Shown: positions 4,321-23,758, numbered from the whole stretch's first letter. The stretch: 63,300 nt of DNA, filler included, from Acidimicrobiia bacterium (GCA_041577335.1; 4 parts of 3 records of this genome joined end to end with filler, not necessarily neighbours in it), one strand, 5' to 3'. The notes: generated from the sequence alone by a model not told the origin. Numbers and translations are program-made.

Positions 4321-6533
4321 ACACCTTCGAGCTGCTGTATTCGGGTCGGGGCACCGTGGCGGGGGCATCCTTCACCGACGTGATCGCCCAGCGCCCGGCT
4401 CTGACGCTCCTTGTGTTTGTGTCCGTGGCAGTGGCGGTGGTTCTCCTCGTCAACCTGCGCTCGCGGGGATGGCTCCTCCCCGCCATCGCGGTGGGAGGGT
4501 GGTTGCTCATCTCGATCATCGGCGGTGGGCTGGTCCCGGCTGGAGTTCAGCAGCTGTCGGTGGTGCCTGATGAGATCAACAAGGAGATCCAGTATGTGCA
4601 GCACAACATCGAGTTCACGCGGTACGCATATGGAATCAACGACGTAGAAACCCGATCGTTCGACGCCCGGCAGAACCTCGAAATCTCCGACCTCGAGGCG
4701 AGCACGGCGACACTCGACAACTTGCGCTTATGGGACCCGGCGGTTCTCCGCTCGACGTACAAGAGCAGTCAGGAGCTCCGCCCGTTCTACGAATTCGAAG
4801 ATGTCGACGTGGATCGGTACGTCATCGATGATGAGCTCACGCAGGTTCTCCTGTCGCCCCGGGAGCTGGTCCGACCCGAGACGAGCGATGACTGGATCAA
4901 CAGTCACCTCGTGTTCACGCACGGATTCGGTGCCGTCGTCAGCCAGGCCAATGCCGTAACCGGCGAAGGAAAACCGGACTACCTCGTGCGAGACATTCCT
5001 CCGCAATCGAGCGACCCCATTCTCGAGATCGAACAACCTCGCATCTACTTCGGAGAAGCATTGCCGCGGAACTCGATCGTCATCGCCGGCACGTCCGAAA
5101 TGGAGATTGACCGACCCGTGGGCGAGGGCGACGACGCTATCGAGTTCAACAGCTACGACGGTCCTGGTGGCGTCGAAGCGGGCAACCTGCTGCGCCGGGC
5201 CGCTTTTGCGGTGCGCTACTCCGATTTCAACATCATCATCAGCCAGCAGCTCGAGGCCGACAGCAAAGTGCTGATGCGACGGAACGTCGTCGATCGAGTC
5301 GCGTCGGGGGCACCCTTCATGAGTGTCGACTCCGATCCCTACATGGTGGTACTCGACGGACGGCTGGTGTGGGTGGTCGACCTCTACACGACCAGCGAGT
5401 GGTTTCCCTACTCGCAATCGGCCGAAACCGGCCGATTGCGTGCGGTTTCCGATGGCGCCATCAACACGGATCCCTATCTCTCGAACCGGTTCAACTACCT
5501 ACGCAACCCGGTGAAGGCAACGGTCGACGCCTATACGGGTGAGATGACGTACTACGTGATCGACGAAACGGATCCCGTGCTGGGCGCATACCGTCAAGCG
5601 TTTCCTGATCTGTTCACCTCAGCCGATGAAATGCCGGATGGCCTTGCCGAACACTTCCGCTATCCAGAAGACATGTTCCGTGTCCAGACCGACATGTTCC
5701 GCCGTTATCACGTCACCGGTGCCCGAGACTTCTTCACCGACTCTGACCGCTGGGACATCGCCGTAGACCCGGCCACGTCGCCGCGAGATCCGATCCGCCG
5801 GCCCGTCTTCGATCAAGATCGGCGTCAGATCCTTCAAATGGAGCCCTATTACCTGCTGATCAGACTTCCGGGGGAGGACGAGTTGTCGTTTCTGATGATG
5901 CAGCCGTTCACGCCGGAAGCCAAAGCGAACATGATCTCGTTCCTCGTGGCCAAGAGCGACCCGGGATCATATGGCGATTTGATCGTGTATCAGTTGCAGC
6001 GCGACCGGCAGTTCGACGGGCCGGCCCTCGTCGGTCAAGACATCAATCAAGACTCTGATTTCTCAGCCCTTCGCACGCTCGAGGGACAGGAAGGATCGGA
6101 ATTCATCCAGGGTCAGATGCTCGTGATCCCGATCGAGGAGTCGATTCTCTACGTTCAGCCGATCTACTTGCAGGGCGATTCCGGTCAGATCCCGGAGTTC
6201 AAGCGGGTCGTCGTCGCGTACGGCGACACGATTGGGTTCGGAGAATCGCTCGATCAGGCACTGGCGCAAGTCTTTCCCGATTTCGCCCCCACTGCGGTTC
6301 CGCTCGATCCCCAGCCTGTCGACGCCGAGCCCACCGACGCCGAGCCCACCGACGGAGAAACGGTCGTCGTGTCGGGAGACGTGGCCGAGTTGCTCGCGTC
6401 GGCAGAAGAGGCTTTTGCAGCTGCAAACCTGGCGCTCGCCGCCGGAGATCTGGGCACGTACCAGACCAAAGTCGAAGAGGCAGCGGCGTTGATTCAGGCC
6501 GCTCAAGAGTTGATCGAGGCCGGCGACAGTTGA
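4321..6533 (+). CDS. UPF0182 family membrane protein (5' partial)
   Basis: NLRLWDP, DVDVDRY, HLVFTHGFG, FNYLRNPVKATVDAYTG, HFRYPEDMF and LYVQPIYL motifs. Confidence 0.93.
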
Positions 6534-6590
6534 CCCGGCAGGTGGCTCGTTGTCTCGCTTTTTGGCGTTGATCCGCCCACAATTGGTTCC

Positions 6591-7424
6591 GTGAACCCGG
6601 TTACGTTGCTTCGCCTTCTCGAAACTCACGAGTTTCAGATTGGGCTGATAGCCGGCATCGTCGGCTTTGTCGTGGCTCTCATCCTGCGTGACCGTCGCCC
6701 ACACTTCGCGTTGCTTTTTTCGTTCGCCGCAGTGGCGGCAATTGGCTGGCTACGGCTGTTTTCGGCCTCGTTGCTCGAGGATGCGTTTCTCCGACGATGG
6801 TGGGTTCTCCCGGCCGCGGTGACATCCATTGCCATCATCACCTACGGCCTCAGCCGCGACAGCGGATTCCTGCATCCCGTGTGGCCGACCGCCGTGTCGT
6901 TGGGTGGCGTATGGGCGACCGTCCCAGACACCGAAGAGGCCGCAGTGGTGCTCGGCGTGATCTCTGGGTTGCTGCTGATGTCGATCCTTCCCCGATCAGC
7001 CAATCTCGCCCTCGTCGGGTCCGAGTTCCTCGCCCTGATCGTCGTGTGGGTGGTCGCAGTCGGATCTCTCGGTAGGGATGGTGCGATCGTGGGTGGCCTG
7101 GGAGCTTTGGCATCGCTGGCGCTCATCCGGTGGCGCCAGGTCGACAGCGGGTGGTGGGACCTGGGCCTCCACGTGGGGTTGGTGTTGGTATGGTCGCGAG
7201 TCGCCGGACTGCGGCAGGCGGCGTGGGAAGCTGCAGCGCTCGGCGTCACCGCGACCGTCGTGGTTGCGGCGGTGCGCTGGCAGGTCGCCAGGCGGCTAAG
7301 GAACCGACCTGAGTCGGGAGTGACGATAGTGGAGCATCGCCCAGAACCATCCGCCACACAAGACGACGGCAATGGCGGTGACGATGATCGCGGTCGGGGT
7401 GAACGTCACGAGAACCAGGGTTGA
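6591..7424 (+). CDS. Polytopic membrane protein, function unknown
   Basis: Many hydrophobic segments; 3' end overlaps the convergent TauE gene. Confidence 0.6.
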   Translation: MNPVTLLRLLETHEFQIGLIAGIVGFVVALILRDRRPHFALLFSFAAVAAIGWLRLFSASLLEDAFLRRWWVLPAAVTSIAIITYGLSRDSGFLHPVWPTAVSLGGVWATVPDTEEAAVVLGVISGLLLMSILPRSANLALVGSEFLALIVVWVVAVGSLGRDGAIVGGLGALASLALIRWRQVDSGWWDLGLHVGLVLVWSRVAGLRQAAWEAAALGVTATVVVAAVRWQVARRLRNRPESGVTIVEHRPEPSATQDDGNGGDDDRGRGERHENQG

Positions 7425-8336
7425 GATGAGCTCGATGGTGATGAGGGTGAGCAACAGAACGATGATGTTGTCTCGGGTCGCCCGCGACGCAAAGTAGGCG
7501 CCTGCGGGAGCGCCGAGCACAACGATTGGGACGGCTACGAGCCAGTATTCGAATGCGATCCCGACGTCGTGGCTGATTGCCACATGCAGGAATGTCCCGA
7601 CAATCGAGTTGATCGCCATGATGATGACGGTGGTGGGAGTGCTCACCTTTTCGTCGATGCCAATGGCCAGCGTGAGCACGATGAAGGTGAGCATGTCGAT
7701 CCCCGAGCCGGTGTTGGCGGCCACGATTCCTCCGGCGACGCCGATCACCAAGAAGAGAGCCCGGTTGCCGTTGGTCCATGACGGCATATGCTGGCGCGGG
7801 ACCCACTTCAATGCCCACCTGGAGATCGCCAGCGCCACACCGAACACCGTGGCGACAAACGTGAACAGAATCTTTGAGTACGGGCTCGCCAACCCGATGT
7901 AGTAAGTCCCCAGAATCTGGCCGAAGACGCCGCCCAATGAGGCCCAGAGGATCACGCGGGGAAGAATGGGGACTCGACGAGCGACGATCACGATGCCGGC
8001 AAACGTCATTCCCACCGACTGGATGAGCAGTCCAAATGTGCGGGCGGTCGTTGGCTCGATCGACAAGACTTTGGTGAAGACCGGAAACGCGACGGCGGCG
8101 CCGCCTTCCGCCGTGGCTCCGGCAACGAAGGAGCCCAAAGACATCGTCAGGCTGACGGGCCAGAACTCGGCGAACAGGCCCCAAGACGAGGTGGTAATCA
8201 TGTAGCTCAGCCACACGATGTAGAACACAACGAGCGCAACGGGGTAGGCCCAACGTCGGACGCGATCAGCAATTGTCGGCGATGGTTGCCCGGCTGCCGG
8301 TTGTTCTTCGGACGTGACCGGAGTAGCCGTCACCAT
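7296..8336 (-). CDS. TauE/SafE family sulfite/organosulfur exporter
   Basis: FVAGATAEGGAAVAFPV, GGIVAANTGSGID and VVLGAPAGA motifs, multi-TM; start at MVTATP after an AGGGGG RBS. Confidence 0.82.
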   Translation of the reverse strand: MVTATPVTSEEQPAAGQPSPTIADRVRRWAYPVALVVFYIVWLSYMITTSSWGLFAEFWPVSLTMSLGSFVAGATAEGGAAVAFPVFTKVLSIEPTTARTFGLLIQSVGMTFAGIVIVARRVPILPRVILWASLGGVFGQILGTYYIGLASPYSKILFTFVATVFGVALAISRWALKWVPRQHMPSWTNGNRALFLVIGVAGGIVAANTGSGIDMLTFIVLTLAIGIDEKVSTPTTVIIMAINSIVGTFLHVAISHDVGIAFEYWLVAVPIVVLGAPAGAYFASRATRDNIIVLLLTLITIELISTLVLVTFTPTAIIVTAIAVVLCGGWFWAMLHYRHSRLRSVP

Positions 8337-8452
8337 CCCCCCTTTGTGCCCCTCTGCCAACTGTTCCTCAGCTGGGAGTCGCGGCGATCCCTGTTGCCGC
8401 AGACGGCGGTAAGGATGGCCGCTCCACCTATCAAATGCAAAAAAACTTCCGG

Positions 8453-9586
<1,134 letters not shown>

Positions 9587-9825
9587 CGTTCGCCCGTCTT
9601 CGAGATCTGTTTGGTCGGCGCCACGCTACTCGGCGGAGCGGTCGCCTTGCTGTGGACACAGATGAGAGCGCCGACTACGTTAGGGCCGCAATTTCGATTG
9701 TGGCCGCCGTGACGCGGCCAGTGGTCAGGGGGGTGTTTTCTGATGGATGACACAAGCACAGGGACGGTCATCGATACCGCTCGCTTGGTCGATTTTTGCC
9801 GCGGAGGCTCGATGGGATCCAGGCG

Positions 9826-10221
9826 ATGAAACTGTCGATCGAGTTCCCACCGATCAGCCCGGCGATCGAGGCTGGGACGGTGGCCAAATGGCACAAAGCG
9901 GTCGGCGATGAGGTCTCTTATGGGGATGATCTGTTCGACATTGCCATCGAGGAGGTCACCCGCATGCGTCGCAGCCTCAGCGCACGGGTGCGAAAGCCAT
10001 CGAAAGCCAAATACCGCAAGCTATCCGATGTCAGCGTGATGTATCGGGTGACGTCGATGGACTCGGGAAGACTCACCAACATCGAGGCGCTCGAAGGGAC
10101 GGCGATCGCCGTGGGTGATGTCGTGGCGCACCTCGACGTTGGCGGGGGCGACGGCGAGTCGACTGCATCGGCCCGCACTTCGTTCAATCTGGTCGGCTCG
10201 AATTCGGAATCTTCGTCATGA
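9826..10221 (+). CDS. Biotinyl/lipoyl-fold-like protein A with insertion at the lysine hairpin
   Basis: GTVAKWHKAVGDEV..GDDLFDI ... SGRLTNIEALEGTAIAVGDVVAHL resembles a lipoyl domain, but DKA/MKM is absent. Confidence 0.7.
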   Translation: MKLSIEFPPISPAIEAGTVAKWHKAVGDEVSYGDDLFDIAIEEVTRMRRSLSARVRKPSKAKYRKLSDVSVMYRVTSMDSGRLTNIEALEGTAIAVGDVVAHLDVGGGDGESTASARTSFNLVGSNSESSS

Positions 10222-11213
10222 GCACGCTGAAGATCCGGGCAGTGCGGGTGCTCCGCAAGGTTGCCGGCACCAACCCATATGCCGCCAAGAAGCTCAAGGC
10301 GCTGTACTCGAAGCCGAAGGTGCAATCTGGCGAGAACTTCACCCAGATGACGGGGCGCCAGTACACCATCGTCCGGTCCAAACAGGGAGCGGACGAGCGT
10401 CGGGTCGGCATCTATCTGCGAGGGGCCTGCGACCTGCCGGCGCTGTTTCGGATCGCACCTCTCATGCGAGACACGTTCCGCGGGACATGCGCCATCAAGC
10501 GAGATCCCAATGAAATCTCCGGTTCCCGGTCGGACCTGATGATGCAGACCCTGCATGACCTCGCCAATGTCCCCCAAGAGACCCTCGACGAGGTGACGGC
10601 AGCATTCAAGCTGGGCGTCCGATATTTCAGCAGCGACATCTTCGACCCGGCCTTCACGATCGAAGGCCAGCAGCGAGAGATGACGTTCGACAAGAACGTC
10701 ATTGTCCTGTCCGCCGCTGCCGACTTCTCCCGCACGCTCTACCGGCATCGTGAGCACGGGCTGCTCGTCGATCCGGGCGGGTTCTGGTTGAACTCTTCCA
10801 TCGACAGCGCTCTCCATGACATGGACGCTGTGAAATGGTTCAACAAGAACTTCAAGAGCATCGGGAAGATGACGCCGGAGGACTACCACCGCGAGTTCGG
10901 CGCATTTGTCACCGAGGTCAAGAAGCGCACTGGCGCACACGTCATGGTGCTGAATCTCTTGGCCGTCGATCCGGCCGACCTGACGCACAACTACCGGCTC
11001 ATCAAGAACCCGGACAATGCGCGCCGGCGCGCCTTCAACGTCGCTCTCGCCGAGATGTCCGAACAACACGACTTCGACATCGTCGACGTAGACCGCATCC
11101 TCAAGGGCGGCGGAATCTCCGGTCAGGTCGACTTTGCGCATGCATCGGAGGAGCAGTTCATGCCGGTCGCAGCCGAGGCGTATCGAATCCTCAAAGAGCG
11201 TGAGATCCTCTGA
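10218..11213 (+). CDS. SGNH-like protein, Cys type, paralogue 1
   Basis: GIYLRGACDL, LYRHREHG, DVDRILK and QVDFAH motifs; ATGA-coupled to the upstream gene. Confidence 0.7.
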   Translation: MSTLKIRAVRVLRKVAGTNPYAAKKLKALYSKPKVQSGENFTQMTGRQYTIVRSKQGADERRVGIYLRGACDLPALFRIAPLMRDTFRGTCAIKRDPNEISGSRSDLMMQTLHDLANVPQETLDEVTAAFKLGVRYFSSDIFDPAFTIEGQQREMTFDKNVIVLSAAADFSRTLYRHREHGLLVDPGGFWLNSSIDSALHDMDAVKWFNKNFKSIGKMTPEDYHREFGAFVTEVKKRTGAHVMVLNLLAVDPADLTHNYRLIKNPDNARRRAFNVALAEMSEQHDFDIVDVDRILKGGGISGQVDFAHASEEQFMPVAAEAYRILKEREIL

Positions 11214-11249
11214 CGTAGGATTGGTTGCGCAGGACGATTCGGGGGAATC

Positions 11250-12260
11250 ATGGCGAGCACATTGAAAAAGACGTTCATCAAGGGAGCGTCGCGCGTTGCT
11301 CGGTCGATCGACAGCGTTTCACCGAAAGCCGGCGATCTTCTCCGGCGCACCTACTACAAACCCAAATCCCAGTCCGGCGATGGCTGGATCGAGATGACCG
11401 GCAAGAACTACCGCATCATTCAGTCCCAAGATGCCCCGGACGCTCAGCGCATCGGCATCTATCTGCGCGGTGGGTGCGATTTGCCGGCCGTGATGACAAT
11501 GGCTCCTTTGGCCGCCAAAACGCTGACCGGCACCTGCGCCATCTCGCGCGATCCGATTCTCATCTCAGGCTCACACTCCAATTTGCTCCTTCAGACCCTC
11601 GGGGACCTCGACGACGTTCCTCGCGAAGCGCTCGACGAGGTGAGCCAGGTGTTGCACCTCGGAAGACGGTATTTCTCATCTGACCCGTTCGATCCGACAT
11701 TCGAAGTGATGGGTACGAAAGGGCCGGAGACGTTCGACAAGAACGTTGTCGCATTATCCATCGGCCCTGACTTCACGCGCACGCTGTACCGACATCGAGA
11801 GTATGGGTTCTTCGTCGATCCGGGTGGCTATTGGCTCAACGATGCCATCGATTCGGCAATCGATGACATGGAGGCGGTGAAGTGGTTCAGCAAGAACTTC
11901 AAGAGCGCCGGAAAGCTCACCGCCGACCAGTTCAGTGAGCGTTTCGGACGCCTCGTCACAGAATTCAAAGCTCGTACCGGAGCCCATGTGCTCGTCATCA
12001 ACCTCTTGACGGTGGACCCGGCCGATCCCATCCACAACTATCGGCTCGTCAAGAACCCCGACAATGCCCGGCGGCGCGAGTTCTCTATCCGGCTCGCTGA
12101 GATCTCCCGAGCCCACGACGTCGACATCATCGACGTCGACCGGGTCCTCAAGCTGCGAGGGATCGAGGAGCAGGTCGATTTCGCCCACTTCTCGGAGACG
12201 CAGTTCAAGCCGATCGCCGCCGAGGTCTACCGGATCCTGCGAGCGCGCGAAATCCTCTGA
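11250..12260 (+). CDS. SGNH-like protein, Cys type, paralogue 2
   Basis: GIYLRGGCDL ... QVDFAH; colinear with paralogue 1. Confidence 0.7.
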   Translation: MASTLKKTFIKGASRVARSIDSVSPKAGDLLRRTYYKPKSQSGDGWIEMTGKNYRIIQSQDAPDAQRIGIYLRGGCDLPAVMTMAPLAAKTLTGTCAISRDPILISGSHSNLLLQTLGDLDDVPREALDEVSQVLHLGRRYFSSDPFDPTFEVMGTKGPETFDKNVVALSIGPDFTRTLYRHREYGFFVDPGGYWLNDAIDSAIDDMEAVKWFSKNFKSAGKLTADQFSERFGRLVTEFKARTGAHVLVINLLTVDPADPIHNYRLVKNPDNARRREFSIRLAEISRAHDVDIIDVDRVLKLRGIEEQVDFAHFSETQFKPIAAEVYRILRAREIL

Positions 12261-12266
12261 GAGGGT

Positions 12267-13562
12267 CTACGCGGACTCCTGCTTGCGCTCTGCCCACAAA
12301 CGGGTACCGGCCGACCCGGCGATTGCTCCGAGCACGACGCCGGCGAGGCCCACGCCGATCAGTGTCGACGCCGGCCACCCGTCTTGGTCCTCCTCGGGCG
12401 ATGCTGCCTGGCGTTGATCGTTCAATCGCACGCGATCTGTGGATTGGGTGGCCGCCCGCCTCGAGCTGTTGTCGGACGCCTGGCCTCTGATCGTTGTCTC
12501 GGGAGCCTCCGCCACCGTTTCCTCAGTGGTCGTGGTGGCGGCGGCCTCGGTTGGGGGAGGGCTGTCGCTCGCCTCGCCGGCTTCGAACCAGGTTGCGGTC
12601 GGGTCCGCAATCAGATGGTCGTACAGAAGCTGACCGACTTTGAGAGCGCCAGTTTCGGGAAGGGGATGGACGCCGTCGTTGGGAGCAAAATCGGAGCATT
12701 CCCATATGAGCCCGTCACTACGAGGGTTCAGGCCATCGGCCCACAAGTAAGGCCCCCAGGCCATCCAGGGAGCGAGGACCGCTCCTGCCTGTGGGTCGGC
12801 ATTGAGTGCTGCAGATCCATTGATCTGTTCCTCGATGAACCACTTCACCGAAAACCCGTGGTTGTAGGCGTTCGGTTCGGAATCTGCATCCGGGATGTAT
12901 CCGCCGTACATTCGGCTGGAGACGTACATCAACTGGAGATTGGGGAACCGCTCTTTGGCCGTCTGGGTGACTTGCGTCATCAATGCCAGGTCGGACGCAG
13001 CATCCTCGAGAGTGCGAGGTCCTCGGGTGCGTGGAGGCAGCATCATCCACGCCACCTGCACCTGCTCAGGTGTTCCGCCGAGGTCCTCGATGTTTCGGAT
13101 CGCCCTGTTCCACGTCTGGTCGCTGTTCTGGTTGGCCCAGTTGCCCAGAGCCCGACCGGTTTGCGACGTGTTGGCGATCAGCACATTGGGATTCACACCG
13201 CCTTCTGTGGCGGCTGTTTCGATGAGCCCATTGAATTGGACGAGCGTGTTCGACACGCCGAGTGAAATGAACACGATCTTGCCGTCGGGGCTGGGCGTTC
13301 CATCAGGACCACGAGGTACAACCTGCTCCAGAAGCGACATCCCGAGCTCGAGGTGATCGGCGGGAATCTCGTTCGATCCGCCAGGGTAGAGACCACCCTG
13401 GGCGCCTTCGTACTCTCCCGTTCCCAAGTCGGTGAGGGGTATCAGACCCGTACCGGTGTTGCTGCAATCGGCGGCAGCGGCCGCCGGGATCGCAGTCGCC
13501 AGCAAGACGACGAGCAGGGCTGCGAGCAGCACAACACTTGAGATTGAACGACGCACGGACAC
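12267..13562 (-). CDS. Secreted, C-terminally anchored SGNH-like protein A
   Basis: Signal peptide, ISLGVSNT, WGPYLWADG, DGVHP, Thr/Ala linker, C-terminal TM helix. Confidence 0.7.
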   Translation of the reverse strand: MSVRRSISSVVLLAALLVVLLATAIPAAAAADCSNTGTGLIPLTDLGTGEYEGAQGGLYPGGSNEIPADHLELGMSLLEQVVPRGPDGTPSPDGKIVFISLGVSNTLVQFNGLIETAATEGGVNPNVLIANTSQTGRALGNWANQNSDQTWNRAIRNIEDLGGTPEQVQVAWMMLPPRTRGPRTLEDAASDLALMTQVTQTAKERFPNLQLMYVSSRMYGGYIPDADSEPNAYNHGFSVKWFIEEQINGSAALNADPQAGAVLAPWMAWGPYLWADGLNPRSDGLIWECSDFAPNDGVHPLPETGALKVGQLLYDHLIADPTATWFEAGEASDSPPPTEAAATTTTEETVAEAPETTIRGQASDNSSRRAATQSTDRVRLNDQRQAASPEEDQDGWPASTLIGVGLAGVVLGAIAGSAGTRLWAERKQESA

Positions 13563-13821
13563 CCCCCTCTGCGATCAGAACCGCCACTTTAGTGCCGGCG
13601 GGAAGGTACAGATACCAAAAAAATCTGTCTGGACGGGCGATGGCAACGACCCTCCGTGAACGCGAATGGTCCGTGCGTGCACGCTAGACAGACTCCGGAG
13701 CCACCACTACGCTTGCGCTTGCTCACTGATCGGACGGGATGGGAGGGCCATGCGCATTGCGCGTTGTGCCCTGCGCCGATACGGTGAGTGCCCGCATGTG
13801 GGTCAACTAAGGGAGGGAACC

Positions 13822-14073
13822 ATGTCGGATATCAAGCAGGCCGTTCGAGAGCAGGTCATCTCGGAATTCATGGATGGTCAGGGAGACAAGCTCACGGACG
13901 AGACCAGGCTCGTCGAAGAGGAGATCATCGACTCGCTGGGGATCTTTCTCATGCTCGGCTTCATCAAGGAGCGGTTCGGCATCGAGGTCGACCCTGAAGA
14001 CGTGACGCTGGATAATTTTGCGTCGGTGAACACGATCGTCGACCTCATCAACGGCAAACGCGACGCCGCCTGA
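13822..14073 (+). CDS. Stand-alone acyl/aminoacyl carrier protein
   Basis: 83 aa, acidic; IIDSLG phosphopantetheine site; FGIEV..EDVTLDNFASV; RBS GGGAGG. Confidence 0.9.
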   Translation: MSDIKQAVREQVISEFMDGQGDKLTDETRLVEEEIIDSLGIFLMLGFIKERFGIEVDPEDVTLDNFASVNTIVDLINGKRDAA

Positions 14074-14076
14074 GCC

Positions 14077-14742
14077 ATGGAGTCCATCAAGTTATTCCTG
14101 ACGGGGACCGATCGGCTCCGCGACATGCTCTGTTCCACCGCCGATGGCGGCCGGAAGCTCTCAAGAGGGGTGCGCGAACTCGTCGCCGAGCAGTACGCCG
14201 GCAAGGCGGAAGTAGACGTGGTGTTCGAGCCGTCCGTCGGCGCGGCATCCTTGAGACAAGCCATCGAGGACGGGTCGAGTCAGCTGTCTGAATCCGCCGC
14301 CAACCTCGTCGTGACGTCCGTCGACGCCGAGTTCGCGGCTGGCGATGGCGCCTCGGCTGATGCTTACGAGAGCGACATGCTGGCAGTCATTCGCTCCATC
14401 AAAGCCAACCCCGGCAGCCACGTGATCGTGCTCCTGGCGTCCACGATCGACCCGGAAACGATCGTCTCCAACTATCAGCGCGAGGAGAGTGACCCGACGT
14501 CTCTCCGGGTGCATCGATACGACTTGGCGGCGATGCGGCTTTCGTTCGAGGAAGGAATCTCGGTCCTCGACGTCGACCGGATCATCGCCGAAATGGGTGC
14601 TGCCGACCATGTTCCTGCGTTTCTCGAATACTCCGAGGGCGCCTGTCAGGCGATCGCCAACGAGTTGGTGCGGATCATGGATGATTACGCCTTCTTCGAC
14701 GATCGGCCCCTTCTACCCCAGGTAGGACGAGAAGACGCATGA
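14077..14742 (+). CDS. Shortened, degenerate paralogue of the Cys-SGNH proteins
   Basis: Shares HVIVL..T.DP, NY and VLDVDRII but lacks GxCD and DxxH. Confidence 0.65.
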   Translation: MESIKLFLTGTDRLRDMLCSTADGGRKLSRGVRELVAEQYAGKAEVDVVFEPSVGAASLRQAIEDGSSQLSESAANLVVTSVDAEFAAGDGASADAYESDMLAVIRSIKANPGSHVIVLLASTIDPETIVSNYQREESDPTSLRVHRYDLAAMRLSFEEGISVLDVDRIIAEMGAADHVPAFLEYSEGACQAIANELVRIMDDYAFFDDRPLLPQVGREDA

Positions 14743-15731
14743 TCGAGACCGTGCTCGTGAAGGGCGCCCGTGCCTGGAGGTCGGTCGCCGGCAATGGCAC
14801 CAGCGTTGAGAAGTTCGTGAAGCGCAGGTACCGCAAAGCGATTCGCGTCGAAAAGGGTCGATTGGCGACCCAGTACAGCAATCAGGACTCGGTGGTCATC
14901 CAGGCAAAGAGGAACCCCGAGGATAAGCGGGGCATCTACATGAAAGGTGGCTGCGACCTCCCCTCACTGTTCTTGGCGGGGCCCATGATCAAAGATGTTC
15001 TGGAGCAGGGAACGGTGGCCATCGCCCGTCCAACCGTGGCGGTGGGGACCAGCCAAACGAGCCAGGTGCTCCAGACTCTCGAAGGCATTCCTGAGGAACA
15101 CATCGTCGAGACGTGCCGCAAGCTCCAGATTCGGCCGACCTTCTTCAAGCCGACCCTCTTCGATGAGACGTTCGAGGCAGGTGGCATGGAGCGCTTCGGC
15201 GATTTCCCGAAGTCCGCCGTAGTGCTCTCGGTCGGCTCGGACCTCACTCGGTCCCTCCACCGCCATCGCGAGCACGGCTTTCTGGTTGACATCGGGGGTT
15301 GGTGGCTCAACCAATCGCTCGACAAAGCCATACAAGACGTCGAGACCGTGAAATGGTTCAAGAAGACGTTCGAGCCGGTGGGCAAGATGACCATTCCCGA
15401 GTTTGTCTCGAACATGGAGCTGATCGTCAAACATCTGCGGGATCAACTCGGGTCTCATCTCATCGTGATGAATACCCTCGTGGTCGAGCCGCTGAGCCCG
15501 ACTCATAACTTCCAGCTCCTCAACGAGGATCACGTCACCCGCAAACGGATGTTCAACATTGCGCTGGCGGACCTCTCGAAATCTCAAGGGTTTCATGTCA
15601 TCGACGTCGATCGCATTCTCAAAGAGAACGGGGTGCGCGATCAGGTCGACTTCGCCCACTTTCCTGTGGAAGGCAAGATGCCGGTTGCCAAAGAAGCGTT
15701 CCGTATCTTCAGAGAGCTCGAAATCGTTTGA
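14739..15731 (+). CDS. SGNH-like protein, Cys type, paralogue 3
   Basis: GIYMKGGCDL, LHRHREHGFLVDIGGWWLN and QVDFAH motifs. Confidence 0.7.
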   Translation: MIETVLVKGARAWRSVAGNGTSVEKFVKRRYRKAIRVEKGRLATQYSNQDSVVIQAKRNPEDKRGIYMKGGCDLPSLFLAGPMIKDVLEQGTVAIARPTVAVGTSQTSQVLQTLEGIPEEHIVETCRKLQIRPTFFKPTLFDETFEAGGMERFGDFPKSAVVLSVGSDLTRSLHRHREHGFLVDIGGWWLNQSLDKAIQDVETVKWFKKTFEPVGKMTIPEFVSNMELIVKHLRDQLGSHLIVMNTLVVEPLSPTHNFQLLNEDHVTRKRMFNIALADLSKSQGFHVIDVDRILKENGVRDQVDFAHFPVEGKMPVAKEAFRIFRELEIV

Positions 15732-16867
15732 CGCAAGCCACGCGGCCCACCGTGCTGTTCGTCGCGGTGCCCGGTGCTCTGGGAGGCTCCAATCGGGCGC
15801 TCCTCACGCTACTCCACGCTCTCGAGGGACAGCTGACCCGTGTCGTTGCTGCTCCCGCCGTGGGGGCGATGGCGTACACCGTTGCCGATGAGGGTTTGTC
15901 CGAGGAGTACATCGGCCTTCGACACTCGTCGGGCGTAGGGCGGCTGTTGCGGTTTCTCAACGCGTTCCGCATTCTGCGCTGGGCGCACTCACATCGCGGT
16001 GAGATCCACACGATCCACGCCAACGCCACCACGGGGCTCTACATGGCGCTTCCTGCGTCGCTCTGGTCGGGCATTCCGATCACGGTGTGGGTTCATGATT
16101 CGGTAAGTACCCGGTGGGGGCGGCGGATCGGCCGCCTGATCGGAGGTCGGCTGCGGCGAGTCCGATGGGCGGCCGTTTCGTCGGTTGCTCGGGACGTCAT
16201 CGTGAAGAACGGCTTCGCTCGTATGGATGAGATCGAGATCGTCCCGAACCCGGTTCAGGAGTCTGCGGTGCTTGCCAGGGTCAAGGATCCCCAGGTCGAG
16301 GGAAAGGTTCGGATCGGCTTTCTGGGTGCCGCGACCGCAGCCAAGGGTTTTGATCTCCTGCCCGATGTCATGGCAGCCACTGCCGACTTGCCGATCACTT
16401 GGAAGCTTGTGGTCAACCGCAAGGATCTTCCCGAAGAGACCCCGATCTGGGAGAAGATCGACGCTGTCGAGGGACTCAACGCTGAGCTCATCGGCCGTAT
16501 CCACGATGTGCGAGAGGCCTACGCACAGTGCGACATCATCTTCAACCCTTCACAGTTCGAGTCGTTCTCACGTGTTACGGCTGAGGCGCTCCTCAACGGA
16601 ATACCGGTCGTTGCGTCGGACCTGCCGTCTATGCGCGACCTGCTTGGCGGCAGTGACGCAGGAGTGCTGTTTCCTCGCGGTGATACCGACGCCGCTGCGA
16701 CGGCCATTCGGAGACTGGTCGAGGACCCGGCAGAGCTGGCGCGGCGTTCGGCGGCCTGCCGTTCGGTACCGTTGGAATTCGAGCCGGGGACAGTGGCCCG
16801 CCACATGATGGATCTGTACGGTTCTGCACATGCGCTGGGAACGAAGACTGCCCGCCGGCAAGGGTGA
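15728..16867 (+). CDS. Glycosyltransferase family 4 (GT-B)
   Basis: GG motif, HTIHAN, AKGFD and PSQFESFSRVTAEALLNGIPVVASD (EX7E). Confidence 0.9.
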   Translation: MTQATRPTVLFVAVPGALGGSNRALLTLLHALEGQLTRVVAAPAVGAMAYTVADEGLSEEYIGLRHSSGVGRLLRFLNAFRILRWAHSHRGEIHTIHANATTGLYMALPASLWSGIPITVWVHDSVSTRWGRRIGRLIGGRLRRVRWAAVSSVARDVIVKNGFARMDEIEIVPNPVQESAVLARVKDPQVEGKVRIGFLGAATAAKGFDLLPDVMAATADLPITWKLVVNRKDLPEETPIWEKIDAVEGLNAELIGRIHDVREAYAQCDIIFNPSQFESFSRVTAEALLNGIPVVASDLPSMRDLLGGSDAGVLFPRGDTDAAATAIRRLVEDPAELARRSAACRSVPLEFEPGTVARHMMDLYGSAHALGTKTARRQG

Positions 16868-17742
16868 AACGAATGGATAGAGCATTCCTGGTGGGCTGCC
16901 CGCGATCCGGCACCACCCTTCTGCAAACGATGCTGGCGCAGCATCCGGCCGTTTTCACGGTCCCCGAAACGCACTACTTCCTCAAGCTGCGGGGGCGATT
17001 TGCCGACCACGATGTCGGCCCTCTCGTTTCACCGCGCTCGGCGGCACGAGCGCTTGACGGCGCGGTTGCCGCCGCAGCACCTGCCGCGAGGCCCGCCGTA
17101 CCGCGCTGGTGGCCATTCTTTGGGCGTTACGCGCGATCGTTTGTCGAGGTCATGGATGCCGGTGCCGCCGCTCACGGTGCCTCGGTGTGGATCGAGAAGT
17201 CGCCGATTCATCTCCACCACTTGGACGAAATAGCTGAGCACGTCCCCGATGTCGTGTTCTTGCACCTACTACGCGATGGGTGTGACGTGGTGGCGTCGTT
17301 TGTCGACTTGTGTGAGAGAGAACCTGAGCGATGGGTCCCGCAGCTGCTGACGAAGGATGATCTCGCCCCAAGCAGGAGGGTGCTCATCGAAGCTGCCGCC
17401 GCCCGCTGGAATCGCGATATCGCCCTGAGCGTCGACTGCTACGGCCGTCGGGGCCATCACGTCCTGACGTACGAGAGCCTGATCGCCGACCCACGAACCG
17501 AGCTGCAGGCGGTCGCGGCGTTCTTCGGTTTGTCGTACGACCCCGCCATGGAGCGCAATTGGGAATCGGCCGAGCAGGTGGTCGGGCATCGCAAGGACAT
17601 GCAGCATATGGAAAAGGCTTTCCAGCCGGTAGAGGACCGTCGCCGGCGGAGATTCACCACCGTGTTTTCGTCCGGCGAACAGCAGCGCGTGATCGACATG
17701 CTCACGCACGGTGGCGACCCGAGAGCCGCACTCTCACCTTGA
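16864..17742 (+). CDS. PAPS-dependent sulfotransferase
   Basis: 5'-PSB GCPRSGTT, PETH, EKSP, 3'-PB LLRDGCDVVAS and YESL motifs. Confidence 0.9.
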   Translation: MKRMDRAFLVGCPRSGTTLLQTMLAQHPAVFTVPETHYFLKLRGRFADHDVGPLVSPRSAARALDGAVAAAAPAARPAVPRWWPFFGRYARSFVEVMDAGAAAHGASVWIEKSPIHLHHLDEIAEHVPDVVFLHLLRDGCDVVASFVDLCEREPERWVPQLLTKDDLAPSRRVLIEAAAARWNRDIALSVDCYGRRGHHVLTYESLIADPRTELQAVAAFFGLSYDPAMERNWESAEQVVGHRKDMQHMEKAFQPVEDRRRRRFTTVFSSGEQQRVIDMLTHGGDPRAALSP

Positions 17743-17837
17743 GACGATTACCGCCAGTCAAGCGATGATCACTATGGTCAATTCGGCACTAACACACTAG
17801 GGTGGCGGTTCACTGTCAATATGGCTTGGGGGCAAAC

Positions 17838-19058
17838 ATGAAGACAGATGTTGTAATCGTGGGAGGTGGGCCAGGTGGCTGTACAACCTCCCTTTTTCTC
17901 GAACAACGGGGAATCAGCTCGGTAATCGTCGAAAAGGACGACTTTCCGCGCTTTCACATCGGCGAATCGATGACCGGCGAAGCCGGCGCAATCGTCCGTC
18001 GGCTCGGTCTCGAAGCCACCATGAAAGCTCGCAGCTACCCGGTCAAGTTCGCAACCGAGGTCTACGGCACGGGGGGCAACAACAAATTCCGCGTTCCCGT
18101 CATGGCGCGCGGCGACGAGGGCCTCAACCGCGCCTCGACCTGGCAGGTCCGCCGTAGCGACTTCGATGCGATTCTCTTCGAGGCCGCCATCGAGCGAGGG
18201 GCGACCCATGTGACGGGCAAGGCTCAGAAGCCGATCGTCGATGCCGACGGCCGGGTCACCGGAGTTTCCGTGGAGCTCCCGGAGGGAGACACACTCGACA
18301 TCGAAGCACAGATGGTGGTTGACGCCTCTGGGAGAGGAACCTGGGCTTCACGTGCCGGGTTGACGGGACCCAAAGACAAGGGCAACTACGCCAAACAGAC
18401 CGCGGTGTTCTCTCACCTCCGGGGGGCGGTTCGGGACGAGGGCGATGACAGCGGAAACACGATCATCTTCTACAAGTCGCACCTTCATTGGGGATGGTTC
18501 ATACCCATCGACGATGAGGTCACGTCGATTGGCATCGTGGCACCCAACAAACACTTCCAGAACTTCTCCGGAACCGTCGAGGAGTATTACGACGAAGAGG
18601 TAGCGACGCTCAATCCTGAGCTTGCGCGACGGCTCGACGACGCCGAACAGGTCGAACCGGTTCGGTCGACAGCGAACTTCTCATACGAGGTCACCGACTA
18701 CGTTGGAGAAGGATTCATGTGCGTCGGCGACTCGCATCGTTTCATCGACCCGATCTTCTCCTTCGGGCTGTACATCACCATGGCAGAGGCCGAGAAGGCA
18801 GCGTCGGTGATTGCCGATGTCCTCGCCGGGTCTGGTGACGATGCCCTGGGTGACTATGCCGCTTTCACGCAGCGGGGCCAGGACAACCTCCAGAACCTGG
18901 TTGACGGATTCTGGACCAACCCACTTGCCTTTGGCTACATGGTTCACCATTCTGAATACGCCGATGACTTCATCGACCTGTTCGCAGGTCGCATCTACGA
19001 TGAAGCGCCGAATCCAGCCATCACCAAGCTCGGCTCGCTCATCGCCAACAATGCGTGA
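17838..19058 (+). CDS. Flavin-dependent halogenase-like oxidoreductase
   Basis: GGGPGG, FPRFHIGES, YPVK, WGWFIP (WxWxIP) and FIDPIFSFG motifs. Confidence 0.8.
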   Translation: MKTDVVIVGGGPGGCTTSLFLEQRGISSVIVEKDDFPRFHIGESMTGEAGAIVRRLGLEATMKARSYPVKFATEVYGTGGNNKFRVPVMARGDEGLNRASTWQVRRSDFDAILFEAAIERGATHVTGKAQKPIVDADGRVTGVSVELPEGDTLDIEAQMVVDASGRGTWASRAGLTGPKDKGNYAKQTAVFSHLRGAVRDEGDDSGNTIIFYKSHLHWGWFIPIDDEVTSIGIVAPNKHFQNFSGTVEEYYDEEVATLNPELARRLDDAEQVEPVRSTANFSYEVTDYVGEGFMCVGDSHRFIDPIFSFGLYITMAEAEKAASVIADVLAGSGDDALGDYAAFTQRGQDNLQNLVDGFWTNPLAFGYMVHHSEYADDFIDLFAGRIYDEAPNPAITKLGSLIANNA

Positions 19059-19094
19059 AGTAGGCGTCGGCGCTCCAGCACGAGGTCGTCATCC

Positions 19095-19526
19095 ATGAGA
19101 ATGCGCATCGTCGTTCCGACAATCGAGGTCAACCTTCCCCGTGCAGCGGTGGAAGCCTGGCATGTTACGCCCGGCCAACGAGTTGAGTTTGGTCAACCGA
19201 TCTGTGATCTCGCTGTGTCGGAGCGCGTCAGGATCAAAACCGTGAGCCGTGCGGACGCGCTTATCAAGGTGACTCGACGCAAGAAGAAGGTCGAAGAAGA
19301 GAGCGAGCTGGAACAAGATCGCTTTCACGTCGTGTACCAGTTGCTGGCATCGGAACCGGCCACGATCGTGGAACTCGTTGCTGCGCTGGACGATCCGCTC
19401 GACGTCGGAGGCCTCCTTGCGATCGCGGATTCTGACCCCGCGCCGGCCGTCGGCGACTCGAGCCAGATCGACGATATGCCAGCGATGCGGGTCGTCGCTG
19501 CGTTGGCCGCGGAAGACACTTTCTAG
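19095..19526 (+). CDS. Biotinyl/lipoyl-fold-like protein B with insertion at the lysine hairpin
   Basis: AVEAWHVTPGQRVEFGQPICDL ... EPATIVELVAALDDPLDVGGLLAI; same layout as 9826-10221. Confidence 0.65.
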   Translation: MRMRIVVPTIEVNLPRAAVEAWHVTPGQRVEFGQPICDLAVSERVRIKTVSRADALIKVTRRKKKVEEESELEQDRFHVVYQLLASEPATIVELVAALDDPLDVGGLLAIADSDPAPAVGDSSQIDDMPAMRVVAALAAEDTF

Positions 19527-20708
19527 CTGAAGCGACGCCGCTGCTCGTACCAGGCGCCCCCTGCCGCTCCGGCGAGGACTCCGATAGCAGCCACGCCGAC
19601 GAGAGGTGCTGCCGAACGCGTTGGCGCGTCGCCCTGACTCGAACCGAGCGCCTCTGTTCGTGGCGATGTGAGGCTCGTGCTCGTGGTGACGGGTGGGGTT
19701 GATGTCGCAGTCGGGTCCGGGCCAGTAGTGGGCGGAGCCTGCTCAGGCATCGACGAAGGGACCACGGGCTCACTCGCGCCAGTCGAGGCGAGAAACCAGC
19801 CGGTGGCGGTTGCGTCGGTTGAGAAGTGCTCAAACAGAGCTGACGCGACCTTTTGCGAGGCACCCGGTCCCGGGTGAATTCCGTCATCATCGAAGTCATC
19901 ACACTCATACACGAGACCATCGCTTCGCCCGGCGGTACCGTCTGCCCACAAGTACGGCCCCCAGGCGATCCACGGGGCCATGACCGGTCCAGTGGCCGGG
20001 TCCGCGTTGAGTTCTGGGTTGCCGGTGATCTGGTCCTCGATCAACCACTTCACCGCGAAACCGTTCTGGTACGCCTTGGGCTCAGCGTCGGAGCTCCCCC
20101 CGTATCCTGCATAAATGCGGCTCGACAGATAGGTGAGGCGGAGATTGGGAAAACGGCCCGCCAGGATATTGAGCACCGTCCTCAGTTGAGCGAGTTCAGC
20201 TTCCACATCGTCCAAAGACGGTGTGCCGCGAATCCTGGCCGGGAGCTTGACCCACGCCACCTGCACCTGTTCGGCCGAGATCCCGGCTCGGCTGAGGTCG
20301 CGGTCAACGTTCTGCCAGGCGTTGGCTTGCGCCCCCTCGGCCCATGCTTCGAGCGATCGAGAGCCTTGCGCACCATTCAGAACAACCAGTCGCGGATTGA
20401 CTTGATCACTGTTCGCCAGCTGATTGAGAAACTCGTCGAATTCAATCATGGTGTTCGAGACGCCCACGGAAATCATGCCGATCTGGCCGGCAGGATCCGG
20501 CTCTCCCGTGGCATTGCGCGGCTGTACCAGGGCAGCCTGCTGGAGGCCCAGCTCCATGTGTTTCTCAGGTATCTCGTTGGCCCCGTCGGGGTACAGGCCG
20601 CCCATATATCCGAGGTATTCGCCTGCCGCCAGATCATTGATCGGGATGAGCCCGGTCGACGTGTTACCGCAACTCTGGGCAGGCGCAGGTGGCCCGATCG
20701 TGAGTAAC
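19523..20708 (-). CDS. Secreted, C-terminally anchored SGNH-like protein B (5' partial)
   Basis: Frame open to the gap (AQSCGNTSTGLIPINDL); ISVGVSNT, WGPYLWADG and DGIHP; paralogue of 12267-13562. Confidence 0.72.
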
Positions 20709-20808: not shown

Positions 20809-21017
20809 ACAACGTCATCGCCGACGACGGCACCTTTGACTCACGCATGCCCGACGGCGCCAATCAGAAGCCGGGAGAATCATGGTCGCTCACCATCGAT
20901 GCTCCCGGGACGTACGCATATTACTGCTCTCTGCACGCCATCCAGAACAACGACGGCGAATGGCAGGGCATGGTCGGCACCGTGATCGCCAATGAGTCCG
21001 CACCGGGAGAGTTATGA
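20809..21017 (+). CDS. Cupredoxin (plastocyanin/azurin-like) domain protein, 5' partial
   Basis: Hand translation NVIADDGTFDS...PGTYAYYCSLH...GMVGTVI; type-1 Cu ligands C, H, M. Confidence 0.85.
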
Positions 21018-22678: not shown

Positions 22679-22681
22679 ATC

Positions 22682-23758
22682 ATGAGCGGCAAGCAGACCT
22701 CTGACAATGATCCAGAAGAAGCGGCGGGCTTCAATCGCCGGGAGGCACTGAAACGGGTCGGCACCGGAGGTTTGTCTGTCCTGGGAGCCGGCGTGGTCGT
22801 TGGGTCTCTGGGGTCCCGAGCCGCCGCGGGAGACGACGCGCCCGGGGCGCCGGGCGACGGACAGTCAGATGAGTACGGAGCAGGGTTGTTCTCGGATGAG
22901 CTCCCGGTGGGCGCCGCAGCCGGACCATATGGAGGAGAGTACGCCCCGCCCGAACATACAGCCGCCGACGCGCTCGACCACCTGACCTTCCCTCCGGCTC
23001 CTCGCAGCGGGACCGTGGAAGTCGAGATGGCCGTCGTCGAGGTACCGATCGAGGTGAGCAGGGCACATACCGTTGCCGGTTGGACGTACAACGGGACGGC
23101 CCCGGGGCCGACGATTCGAGCAACCGAAGGCGATCTGATCCGCGTTCACTTCTCCAATAGGACGAACCACGATCACAACTTGCATTTTCACGGAAGCCAC
23201 TCTCCCCAACACGACGGCTGGGAACCAATCCCTCCTGGCGGAGAGACCGTCTATGAGATCGTGGCGGGACCCGCCGGCGTTCACCCGTATCACTGCCACA
23301 CGATGCCTATCAACAGGCATATCTCGAAGGGCCTGTATGGCACCCTCATCGTCGATCCACCAGAGGCAAGACCGGATGCTCATGAGGTCGTTCTCGCACT
23401 GTCAGGATGGGACATCGACGACGACGGTCACAACGAGCTGTATTCGTGGAATGGGATTGCCGGGTTCTTCCAGAAGTACCCGATCAAGGTTCCGGCAGGC
23501 GAGCTCGTCCGTGCCTATGTCTTGAACATGACCGAGTTCGATCCGATTGCATCGTTCCACCTACACGCCCAAACGTTTGCTGTCTATCCGGCGGGCATGG
23601 GGTCAGAGCCGGCCTTTGCCTCGGACGTGGTGACGTTCGGACAAATGGACCGGGCCATCCTCGAGTTCGAACTCCCTCAGCGTGGCCGCTACATGTTCCA
23701 TCCCCACCAACACTCGATCGCCCAGCGAGGGGCCATGGGGTGGTTCTCGGCGACATAG
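22682..23758 (+). CDS. Tat-exported two-domain multicopper oxidase
   Basis: NRREALK Tat signal; HNLHFHG, YHCH..HISKGL, FHLH and FHPH motifs. Confidence 0.88.
   Translation: MSGKQTSDNDPEEAAGFNRREALKRVGTGGLSVLGAGVVVGSLGSRAAAGDDAPGAPGDGQSDEYGAGLFSDELPVGAAAGPYGGEYAPPEHTAADALDHLTFPPAPRSGTVEVEMAVVEVPIEVSRAHTVAGWTYNGTAPGPTIRATEGDLIRVHFSNRTNHDHNLHFHGSHSPQHDGWEPIPPGGETVYEIVAGPAGVHPYHCHTMPINRHISKGLYGTLIVDPPEARPDAHEVVLALSGWDIDDDGHNELYSWNGIAGFFQKYPIKVPAGELVRAYVLNMTEFDPIASFHLHAQTFAVYPAGMGSEPAFASDVVTFGQMDRAILEFELPQRGRYMFHPHQHSIAQRGAMGWFSAT

Follow-up and report, generated by a model that had tools for sequence, protein, structure and literature searches.

What would a stand-alone carrier protein and a flavin-dependent halogenase be doing in an operon with glycan-modifying enzymes? 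The question is raised by a contig at positions 4321-20708 of the DNA analysed here (the window, that is, the whole stretch of 63,300 nucleotides including filler, from Acidimicrobiia bacterium GCA_041577335.1), which encodes these two proteins together with three SGNH-like proteins of Cys type, a degenerate fourth paralogue, two lipoyl-like proteins, a glycosyltransferase and a sulfotransferase. A first-pass annotation, made from the sequence, had listed these genes along with a DegT aminotransferase, a TauE protein and two exported SGNH-like proteins, and gene calls, Pfam matches and motifs recovered every one of them. It is our view, held as probable rather than certain, that a putative trio comprising a Cys-His SGNH enzyme, its catalytically dead paralogue and a lipoyl-like protein takes a halogenated pyrrole-2-carbonyl group over from the carrier and attaches it to a sulfated surface polysaccharide, and that it does so without an MBOAT protein of the Dlt type.

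The three Cys proteins of the window are 330-336 amino acids long, share 38-60% mutual identity and are all encoded on the plus strand as likely aroyl transferases: cys3 (10218..11213; GACD at residue 69, DFAH at 305; 60% identical to cys2), cys2 (11250..12260) and cys1 (14739..15731; GGCD at 70, DFAH at 304; 38-39% identical to cys2 and cys3). The predicted model of cys2 (predicted local distance difference test score, pLDDT, 85.5) adopts the SGNH fold, with its best structural match to 4Q9A (Z 14.6, root mean square deviation (rmsd) 3.3 over 183 aligned residues). Cys76 and His313 (cys2 numbering) are conserved without exception in the 42 aligned sequences and Asp310 is nearly so, while the block I Cys and the block V DxxH motif occur together in all three window proteins and in 65 of the 73 rows of a quick version of the family tree, from whose counts one locus (L002) was left out; before one of the alignments near-identical sequences were thinned. 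No Pfam family was matched above its cut-off by the Cys enzymes or by the dead paralogues. Weak matches to Lipase_GDSL_2 were obtained for 45 of 74 Cys enzymes and 19 of 61 dead paralogues (0.005-0.02 in the window, below the cut-off), and FkbH_N matched 3 of the 61. The degenerate protein deg4 (14077..14742, plus strand) belongs to a family that aligns with the Cys enzymes in hhalign at a probability of 99.9% (E 7e-34), its Asp standing opposite the Cys and its Tyr opposite the His, and the 61 aligned sequences of this family are without a conserved Cys or block V His; as judged from this alignment, deg4 is a member of a conserved sister family of the Cys enzymes. Lipoyl-like protein 2 (9826..10221, plus strand; Pfam Biotin_lipoyl 4e-7) and lipoyl-like protein 1 (19095..19526, plus strand; Biotin_lipoyl 5e-3) belong to one family, whose profile matches E2 lipoyl domains with a best E of 3e-19. 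The family aligns to E2 residues 1-44, places a Glu at the position of the lipoyl Lys, and then carries about 33 inserted positions (median 33 amino acids, net charge +6) before the alignment resumes; a lipoyl-like motif was found in 1 of 72 sequences. The family cannot be lipoylated in the usual way, and a role as covalent carriers was rejected owing to the absence of a lysine at the hairpin, so that these proteins are likely non-carrier subunits of the trio. The basic amphipathic N-terminus of the Cys enzymes, which scored above its own shuffles in 61 of 65 sequences (median charge +8), combined with no evident signal peptide, suggests a location at the inner face of the membrane.

That these proteins belong together is indicated by 142 related loci (71 from genomes and 71 from metagenomes; loci, genomes, contigs and proteins are cited below by L, G, C and P numbers), the counts by locus being made on the 49 loci of at least 15 kb, near-duplicates included and L002 left out. 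Near the Cys enzyme a lipoyl-like domain is encoded in 48 of these 49 loci and a dead paralogue in 41, more often than chance would give, and the co-occurrence in other genomes that the first-pass annotation had proposed to examine is thereby seen. The usual order among relatives is dead paralogue, lipoyl-like gene, Cys enzyme, with the carrier gene directly 5' of the dead paralogue in the window and in many of the relatives' loci. Lipoyl-Cys, dead-lipoyl and dead-lipoyl-Cys fusions all occur among the best 150 profile matches. From the gene order and the fusions we infer that the three proteins are one enzyme in three parts; a complex prediction for cys3, the dead paralogue and lipoyl-like protein 2 scored 0.15 against a mark of 0.32 and was counted neither for nor against this. 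The rows of the Cys-enzyme tree are from Actinomycetota (60 of 73), Chloroflexota (4) and Gemmatimonadota (1), with 8 unlabelled, and the origin of the family and its transfer between phyla are not settled by this quick tree. Satellite pairs of a dead paralogue and a Cys enzyme, often with fused lipoyl-like domains, were also seen far from the main cluster of the same genomes (L057, L062, L066, L058, L044, L048, L052-L056, L059, L061 and L063). P0054 is a Cys enzyme fused to a thioesterase domain, and two distant Cys homologues carry TPR tails.

The donor can be approached through the carrier and the halogenase. The carrier (13822..14073, plus strand), a stand-alone peptidyl carrier protein of prolyl/pyrrolyl type with an IIDSL motif at Ser38 and a PP-binding match of 8e-4, below the cut-off, has its best PDB matches in PigG (6e-8), 6CXT_A (1e-7), which we take to be the Bmp1 carrier, and PltL (1e-4), mostly ahead of fatty-acid acyl carrier proteins. 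The halogenase (17802..19058, likely start 17835, plus strand; Trp_halogenase 5e-20, motifs GGGPGG and WGWFIP) is of the Bmp2 branch, as its best PDB match is 5BVA, presumably Bmp2 itself (E 6e-80, 272 bits as compared to 165 bits for the next enzyme), and its Lys82 aligns with the active-site Lys of Bmp2. The assignment of 5BVA is supported by the differences between it and its triple mutant 5BUL, which fall at the same three places that the excerpted text of PMC5577590 gives for Bmp2 (Y302S/F306V/A345W); there, Y302, F306 and A345 are the residues of multiple bromination and the S/V/W set is mono-halogenating. Among 32 halogenase rows from related loci, 17 share the branch of the window enzyme, 10 carry the Mpy16-type S/[IV]/W set and 5 are of other types, one of the 32 rows being from the unpublished genome G004. 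In the relatives, the neighbouring adenylase has as its best single-domain match the L-proline carrier ligase 6O6E (4e-108), and its pocket positions read DL[FL]Y[LVI]A[LW]VC, which we take to be a proline code, in 35 of 40 rows (some rows being one gene from overlapping loci). The neighbouring dehydrogenase best matches prolyl-carrier dehydrogenases (1e-132), reaches 440 and 430 bits against the NCBIfam PigA and RedW models, below their cut-offs, and has its top match in 4IRN, presumably AnaB, an enzyme that stops at the pyrroline. The loading ligase for which the first-pass annotation had proposed a search was in this way found in relatives, in 12 of 12 Cys-positive Acidimicrobiia genomes. 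The thioester-bound, possibly halogenated unit that it had envisaged is identifiable, from the carrier and halogenase of the window and from the adenylase and dehydrogenase of relatives, as a proline-derived pyrrole-2-carbonyl group, a sharper assignment for a window in which the loading genes are absent. For the window organism itself, P0008 is 100% identical to cys3 and P0239 is 100% identical over 394 amino acids to the exported SGNH protein A at the contig end (19523..20708, minus strand, first 14 codons past the contig end), P0239 being 14 amino acids longer at its N-terminus, and the longest contig listed for both is 127,146 bp. The same figure of 127,146 bp is listed for P0317, an adenylase with the code DLFYIAWVC (among the best 120 of 7943 matches), and this shared figure makes it probable that the adenylase of the window organism lies on the continuation of the contig past the break.

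The association of the trio with the proline genes was quantified in 301 genomes from the class of G002 (Acidimicrobiia), 12 of which carry a Cys enzyme, two of these being seeds of the analysis. The proline adenylase is present in 12 of the 12 Cys-positive genomes as compared to 14 of the 289 others (Fisher p 1e-14), the prolyl-carrier dehydrogenase in 11 of 12 and 11 of 289 (p 2e-13), and a halogenase in 11 of 12 and 2 of 289 (p 2e-17), and in 11 of the 12 genomes the adenylase is located on the contig of the Cys enzyme at a distance of 2-21 kb. G002 carries on a single contig the membrane protein, TauE, DegT, exported SGNH protein, carrier, trio, sulfotransferase and GT4 of the window, plus Wzc, deacetylase, halogenase, dehydrogenase and adenylase, and the same gene set is also found in Chloroflexota (L017, L026). 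Five close genomes harbour the trio and carriers with no proline genes found; in G308, the sole one of the five annotated for another donor, a DAHP synthase, an AMP-binding enzyme and a chorismate lyase are encoded in the cluster, 18 kb away. There, at L192:8704-13697 (G308:C3), a DAHP synthase, an AMP-binding enzyme, a chorismate pyruvate-lyase and a CoA-ligase-like gene end the cluster that holds the trio and two carriers. As read from these genes, the donor of the G308 cluster is likely 4-hydroxybenzoyl, and one lineage appears to have swapped the proline-pyrrole supply for a 4-hydroxybenzoate supply, a swap that fits a trio which transfers aromatic acyl groups and does not make them.

As to the acceptor, the window contributes a GT4 glycosyltransferase (15728..16867, plus strand; Pfam 1e-19, EX7E motif; 41-44% identical orthologues in G001, G002, G005 and G078) and a sulfotransferase dependent on 3'-phosphoadenosine-5'-phosphosulfate (16864..17742, plus strand; Sulfotransfer_3 5e-29, PRSGTT and RxxxDxxxS motifs). 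The clusters of relatives add WecA-like transferases, CapD-type dehydratases, epimerases, several GT4s, Wzc, a NodB-like deacetylase, several sulfotransferases, a protein with nine transmembrane segments (9-TM protein) and a DrrAB-type ABC exporter; of the genes found in relatives and not in the window, the WecA-like initiating transferase occurs in G113, G230 and G254, and Wzc lies within about 10 kb in 20 of the 49 loci. In the Chloroflexota, the cassette and the trio are situated directly 5' of Wzx, a priming transferase, Wzy_C and Wzc in L026, and 5' of Wzm/Wzt in L017. The 9-TM protein (L075:1254-2660 and homologues), possibly an unrecognised polymerase family, is encoded in 102 of the 301 Acidimicrobiia genomes (two of them unpublished), including 12 of the 12 Cys-positive ones, and with this distribution the pyrrole cassette and the trio resemble a facultative addition to a polysaccharide locus that is itself common. 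Of the "glycan or glycolipid" of the first-pass annotation, a polymer is the more likely acceptor and the glycolipid the less likely one, as indicated by WecA, Wzc and Wzx/Wzy or Wzm/Wzt in relatives. The G113 genome is one 2.6 Mb record bearing the title chromosome, and its cluster has one carrier and no hydrolase pair; no MBOAT and no condensation domain were found in the record, and the nearest AT3, ketosynthase and hydrolase-1 matches are more than 250 kb away, so that, among the genes seen in this cluster, the trio is left as sole candidate for the transfer from the pyrrolyl carrier. A polyketide synthase or nonribosomal peptide synthetase outlet was rejected, none having been seen in the cluster. 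The linkage may be an amide or an ester: the deacetylase and CapD/DegT would supply amines, and TviD and CloN7 acylate hydroxyls. Two further observations concern these clusters: L183 and L188 (G243, G277) are pyrrole cassettes in genomes without a Cys enzyme, where an adjoining exosortase-type hydrolase 1/2 pair is a possible alternative transfer route, and exported S-layer-homology proteins, most with a beta-helix, are encoded within clusters at L151:9433-11721, L152:5258-6460, L154:9450-11780, L160:6160-8451 and L179:9495-11846, and may be anchored by the polymer.

Several characterized systems resemble parts of this arrangement. The D-alanylation of teichoic acids by DltABCD serves a surface polymer with an adenylase, a carrier protein and an SGNH protein that is exported and anchored in the membrane, and these have possible counterparts in the window or its relatives, the window encoding two exported SGNH proteins that may correspond to DltD. 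The differences are that the clusters have no MBOAT, that the Cys enzymes have no evident signal peptides, making a cytoplasmic transfer likely, and that the group is an aromatic heterocycle. The core idea of the first-pass annotation holds, but its Dlt analogy is loose: no MBOAT was found in the window or the clusters, and of five genomes tested three have none and two have one on other contigs. The exosortase-A-associated exopolysaccharide cassette (TIGR03098, TIGR03100, TIGR03101) likewise combines a ligase, a carrier and a hydrolase pair in an exopolysaccharide locus, and distant homologues of its hydrolases 1/2 occur in 12 of the 49 loci, with matches below the family cut-offs; to our knowledge that cassette is uncharacterised and contains neither a halogenase nor a Cys-SGNH trio. 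SsfX3 is a single Ser enzyme with a CoA donor and an antibiotic sugar as acceptor. CloN2 of clorobiocin biosynthesis presumably has a KAS III-like fold, and CloN7 we take to be an alpha/beta hydrolase. SsfX3 (PDB 3SKV), a salicylyl acyltransferase listed as an SGNH member in the excerpted part of PMC10792757, resembles the Cys enzymes as an SGNH enzyme moving an aroyl group, and the structural match (Z 11.3, rmsd 3.2, 167 aligned) is no higher in Z than for other SGNH proteins. According to the section available of PMC11218499, CloN1-CloN7 convert proline to the pyrrolyl-carrier and then deliver the pyrrole-2-carbonyl group to a sugar hydroxyl; the acceptor in that case is a small antibiotic, the transfer involves CloN2, a second carrier and CloN7 with no SGNH trio, and the pyrrole is methylated, not halogenated. 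Pyrrolyl-S-carrier cassettes such as Bmp1-4 (tetrabromopyrrole; steps described in the excerpt of PMC5577590), PltF/L/E/A (pyoluteorin) and PigI/G/A share with the window the stand-alone carrier and carrier-dependent halogenase, and with its relatives the adenylase and dehydrogenase, whereas here the cassette has no polyketide synthase, nonribosomal peptide synthetase or thioesterase partner in the cluster and is found in polysaccharide loci beside the trio. TviD, the Vi-antigen O-acetyltransferase, is described in the portion available of PMC8760489 as a Cys-His SGNH enzyme acylating a polysaccharide, and the likeness extends to the SGNH fold, the block I Cys, the block V DxxH, a GT4 partner and a capsular polymer as substrate. 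In contrast, the group added by TviD is acetate, and TviD ends in a TPR tail and uses no carrier; the window enzymes show no TPR match and are accompanied by a carrier, a lipoyl-like protein and a dead paralogue. TviD_N, WcbI and DUF6270 gave no match at E 0.1 among 74 Cys-enzyme members, TviD_N being perhaps not in the profile set.

These resemblances also suggest other explanations. The NodB-like deacetylase, the several sulfotransferases and the DrrA/NodI-like ABC exporter of the clusters would also suit a small secreted molecule, namely a sulfated halopyrrole-acylated oligosaccharide or glycoside that leaves through a DrrAB-type ABC transporter and is comparable to Nod factors or clorobiocin; no flippase was seen among the scanned Acidimicrobiia cluster open reading frames (a scan with no family-directed search), and the transfer of a pyrrolyl group to the sugar of a small molecule has a precedent in the part available of PMC11218499. 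We consider this unlikely, as the WecA-like transferase, the Wzz-kinase Wzc and the 9-TM protein of 102 of the 301 genomes speak for a widespread polymer locus and as L026 combines the module with Wzx, Wzy_C and Wzc, and L017 with Wzm/Wzt. Alternatively, the Cys enzymes might only release the halopyrrole acid, which is the role of the Bmp1 thioesterase, or relay it between carriers as CloN2 does, leaving the final step to other enzymes, for instance the alpha/beta hydrolase pair. Most SGNH proteins are hydrolases, L131, L114 and L097 have no glycan genes, some loci (the L027 group) have two carriers and a hydrolase pair, and P0054 joins a Cys enzyme to a thioesterase domain; set against the single carrier and missing hydrolase pair of the G113 cluster, and against a three-part module kept in polysaccharide operons with three export systems, which hydrolysis would not explain, these points leave a release or relay function quite unlikely.

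It is very improbable, in our estimation, that the Cys enzymes are ordinary acetyl-CoA O-acetyltransferases and that the pyrrole cassette serves something else nearby: a proline adenylase accompanies the Cys enzyme in 12 of 12 genomes, in the window and in many loci the dead paralogue comes right after the carrier gene, and another aroyl supply appears where the proline genes are missing. Acetylation is nonetheless suggested by the Cys-His arrangement shared with TviD, which acetylates a capsule (PMC8760489), by the TPR tails that two Cys enzymes have in common with TviD, and by the listing of a TviD_N cluster as a look-alike in the Atlas (score 0.91). Finally, given that the window contains no loading genes, that a chorismate-lyase lineage exists and that close halogenase relatives occur as orphans, the window carrier could bear another acyl group, for instance 4-hydroxybenzoyl or prolyl, with the halogenase acting on that group or on a free substrate. 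With the carrier and halogenase both best matching pyrrolyl-pathway proteins, and with the proline-code adenylase P0317 sharing its 127,146 bp longest contig with window-identical proteins, we find this hardly to be expected.

A number of observations weigh against the transfer of a halopyrrolyl group to a surface polysaccharide by the trio, which we nevertheless prefer. On the donor side, neither the proline adenylase nor the prolyl-carrier dehydrogenase was found within the window, and the link of the proline genes to the window organism is the one matching figure of 127,146 bp, for the adenylase only. The window halogenase reads F/I/L at the Y/F/A positions of Bmp2, matching neither Bmp2 nor the S/V/W set, and its nearest relatives, in G002 (68%) and G078 (61%), sit outside the clusters of these genomes as orphans (L162:16946, G002:C30; L164:15065, G078:C19), one of which adjoins a thioredoxin-like gene. 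The top match of the dehydrogenase to 4IRN makes a less oxidised ring possible in some loci. The block V His of the Cys enzymes is lost in 8 of the 73 tree rows, which form one subclade of satellite copies. The 12 Cys-positive genomes are related and include the two seeds, and the p-values consequently overstate independence; in G305 the pyrrole genes do not share a contig with the trio. As regards the acceptor, L131, L114, L097 and L043 have a pyrrole cassette and a Cys enzyme without glycan genes close by, neither Pfam nor NCBIfam gave a match for the 9-TM protein taken as a putative polymerase, no flippase was found among the scanned cluster open reading frames of Acidimicrobiia, where no family-directed flippase search was made and a DrrAB-type ABC exporter is present, and in 12 of the 49 loci an alpha/beta hydrolase pair could carry out the final transfer. 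L131:5060-17209 has no glycan genes: behind the pyrrole cassette, halogenase and Cys enzyme come LuxE-like, transglutaminase-like and MacB/HlyD export genes, and the acceptor there may be a protein or a small molecule.

Under the preferred reading of trio-mediated transfer, L-proline would be loaded by a PltF-type adenylase onto the carrier's Ser38 and oxidised by a PltE-type dehydrogenase to the pyrrolyl-S-carrier, both enzymes being encoded by genes seen in relatives, after which the halogenase, to judge by its closest match, would add bromine or chlorine to the carrier-bound ring. The SGNH Cys would then take over the group as a thioester and pass it to a sugar amine or hydroxyl, as the fold, the residues and the TviD and SsfX3 precedents suggest, and gene order and fusions make it likely that its two partners, the dead paralogue and the lipoyl-like protein, serve as scaffold and carrier-docking subunits. 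The site would likely be the inner membrane face, on a lipid-linked repeat unit assembled by WecA and GT4s with the CapD/DegT sugars, a unit that would be sulfated, exported and polymerised. Outside the cell, the exported Ser-SGNH proteins may, speculatively, trim or move acyl groups. The genes, folds, residues, order, fusions and co-occurrence behind this scheme were observed, the route from proline to halopyrrolyl-carrier is that of established pathways, and the remainder is inferred. A more far-reaching scenario, offered tentatively and seen by us as possible more than probable, is that of a halogenated coat, a sulfated surface polysaccharide bearing brominated or chlorinated pyrrole, made by an aroyl transferase of three subunits whose lysine-less lipoyl domain is a docking adaptor between live and dead SGNH proteins, the donors (halopyrrole, plain pyrrole, 4-hydroxybenzoate) being swappable and copies with different partners giving rise to lineage-specific coats.

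Several other genes of the locus are accessory. Exported SGNH protein B (12267..13562, minus strand), C-terminally membrane-anchored and of Ser-His type, is 43-48% identical to protein A; its model (pLDDT 97) has an SGNH fold (Z 14.1, rmsd 3.2, 181 aligned), the Ser and His are invariant in 67 of 67 sequences of the family and no Pfam model was matched by the exported SGNH proteins. The family is large (4091 matches among 7994 candidates, including two-domain forms of about 700 amino acids) and is present in 6 of the 301 genomes, all 6 with the pyrrole cassette, and in 5 of the 12 Cys-positive genomes. The DegT-family sugar aminotransferase (8453..9586, minus strand; Pfam DegT 1e-93), whose 71-75% orthologues stand at the edge of the G001 and G002 clusters, may provide an amino sugar and lies within about 10 kb in 2 of the 49 loci; the TauE/SafE membrane transporter (7296..8336, minus strand, start at 8336; Pfam TauE 4e-16; 76-79% orthologues in G001 and G002) lies within that distance in 4 of the 49. 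On these counts the exported SGNH proteins, DegT and TauE, which the first-pass annotation had counted among the parts of the system, were rejected as core components and are retained as accessory ones. In G305 a TauE of similar type stands directly beside the carrier, adenylase and dehydrogenase (L194:8658-9614), and TauE may serve halide or sulfur traffic. At the cluster edge a membrane protein of no known family (6591..7424, plus strand; no Pfam match at E 0.01) overlaps the 3' end of TauE tail-to-tail by 129 nucleotides (7296-7424), with a similar overlap in G001 and G002, and its homologues occupy the same edge position in G001, G002, G078, G113 and G230.

The plus-strand genes form two units, the first consisting of lipoyl-like 2, cys3 and cys2 and the second of the carrier, deg4, cys1, GT4, sulfotransferase, halogenase and lipoyl-like 1, each followed by a convergent exported SGNH gene, while DegT and TauE are on the minus strand and directed away from these units. 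The four-nucleotide overlaps reported at 10218, 14739, 15728 and 16864 are present (ATGA, ATGA, TTGA and GTGA), and the reported lack of ketosynthase, condensation, adenylation and MBOAT genes agrees with the absence of a match to any of these families among the 15 proteins scanned. The GC content at third codon positions is 0.69-0.81 for all locus genes; scans for promoters and terminators gave numbers close to those expected by chance (2 found against 2.7 expected, and 10 against 9.3). The contig is flanked by N gaps on both sides and is supported by 4 of 4 sequencing runs from at most two studies, whose contigs cover 30 of 30 bins with no single piece spanning it and yielded no sequence past 20708; the matching contigs are from marine, sediment and soil metagenomes. 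None of the marker genes of the cluster was found at orthologue level on the other contigs of the window, and the next contig past the assembly gap (21014-23758) encodes, as read from translations, a beta-helix-like exported protein and a Tat-exported multicopper-oxidase-like protein.

No report of a bacterial surface polysaccharide bearing pyrrole or halopyrrole, or of the trio, was found among the open-licence papers listed, in keeping with the earlier remark that the combination matches no named pathway. The locus is real and conserved, and by analogy it may be read as a cross of clorobiocin pyrrolyl transfer, TviD-like Cys-His capsule acylation and carrier-fed decoration of the Dlt kind. 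If the proposed function is true, natural-product halogenation would be joined to envelope building in an uncultured group known from marine, sediment and soil samples, the polymer would be a bound source of organohalogens, and the trio would found a family of soluble aroyl transferases not known before and put the lipoyl fold to a new use. Corals use tetrabromopyrrole as a cue for settlement (PMC10509201), which suggests that a surface-bound relative could act in adhesion, in signalling or in defence against phage and grazers.

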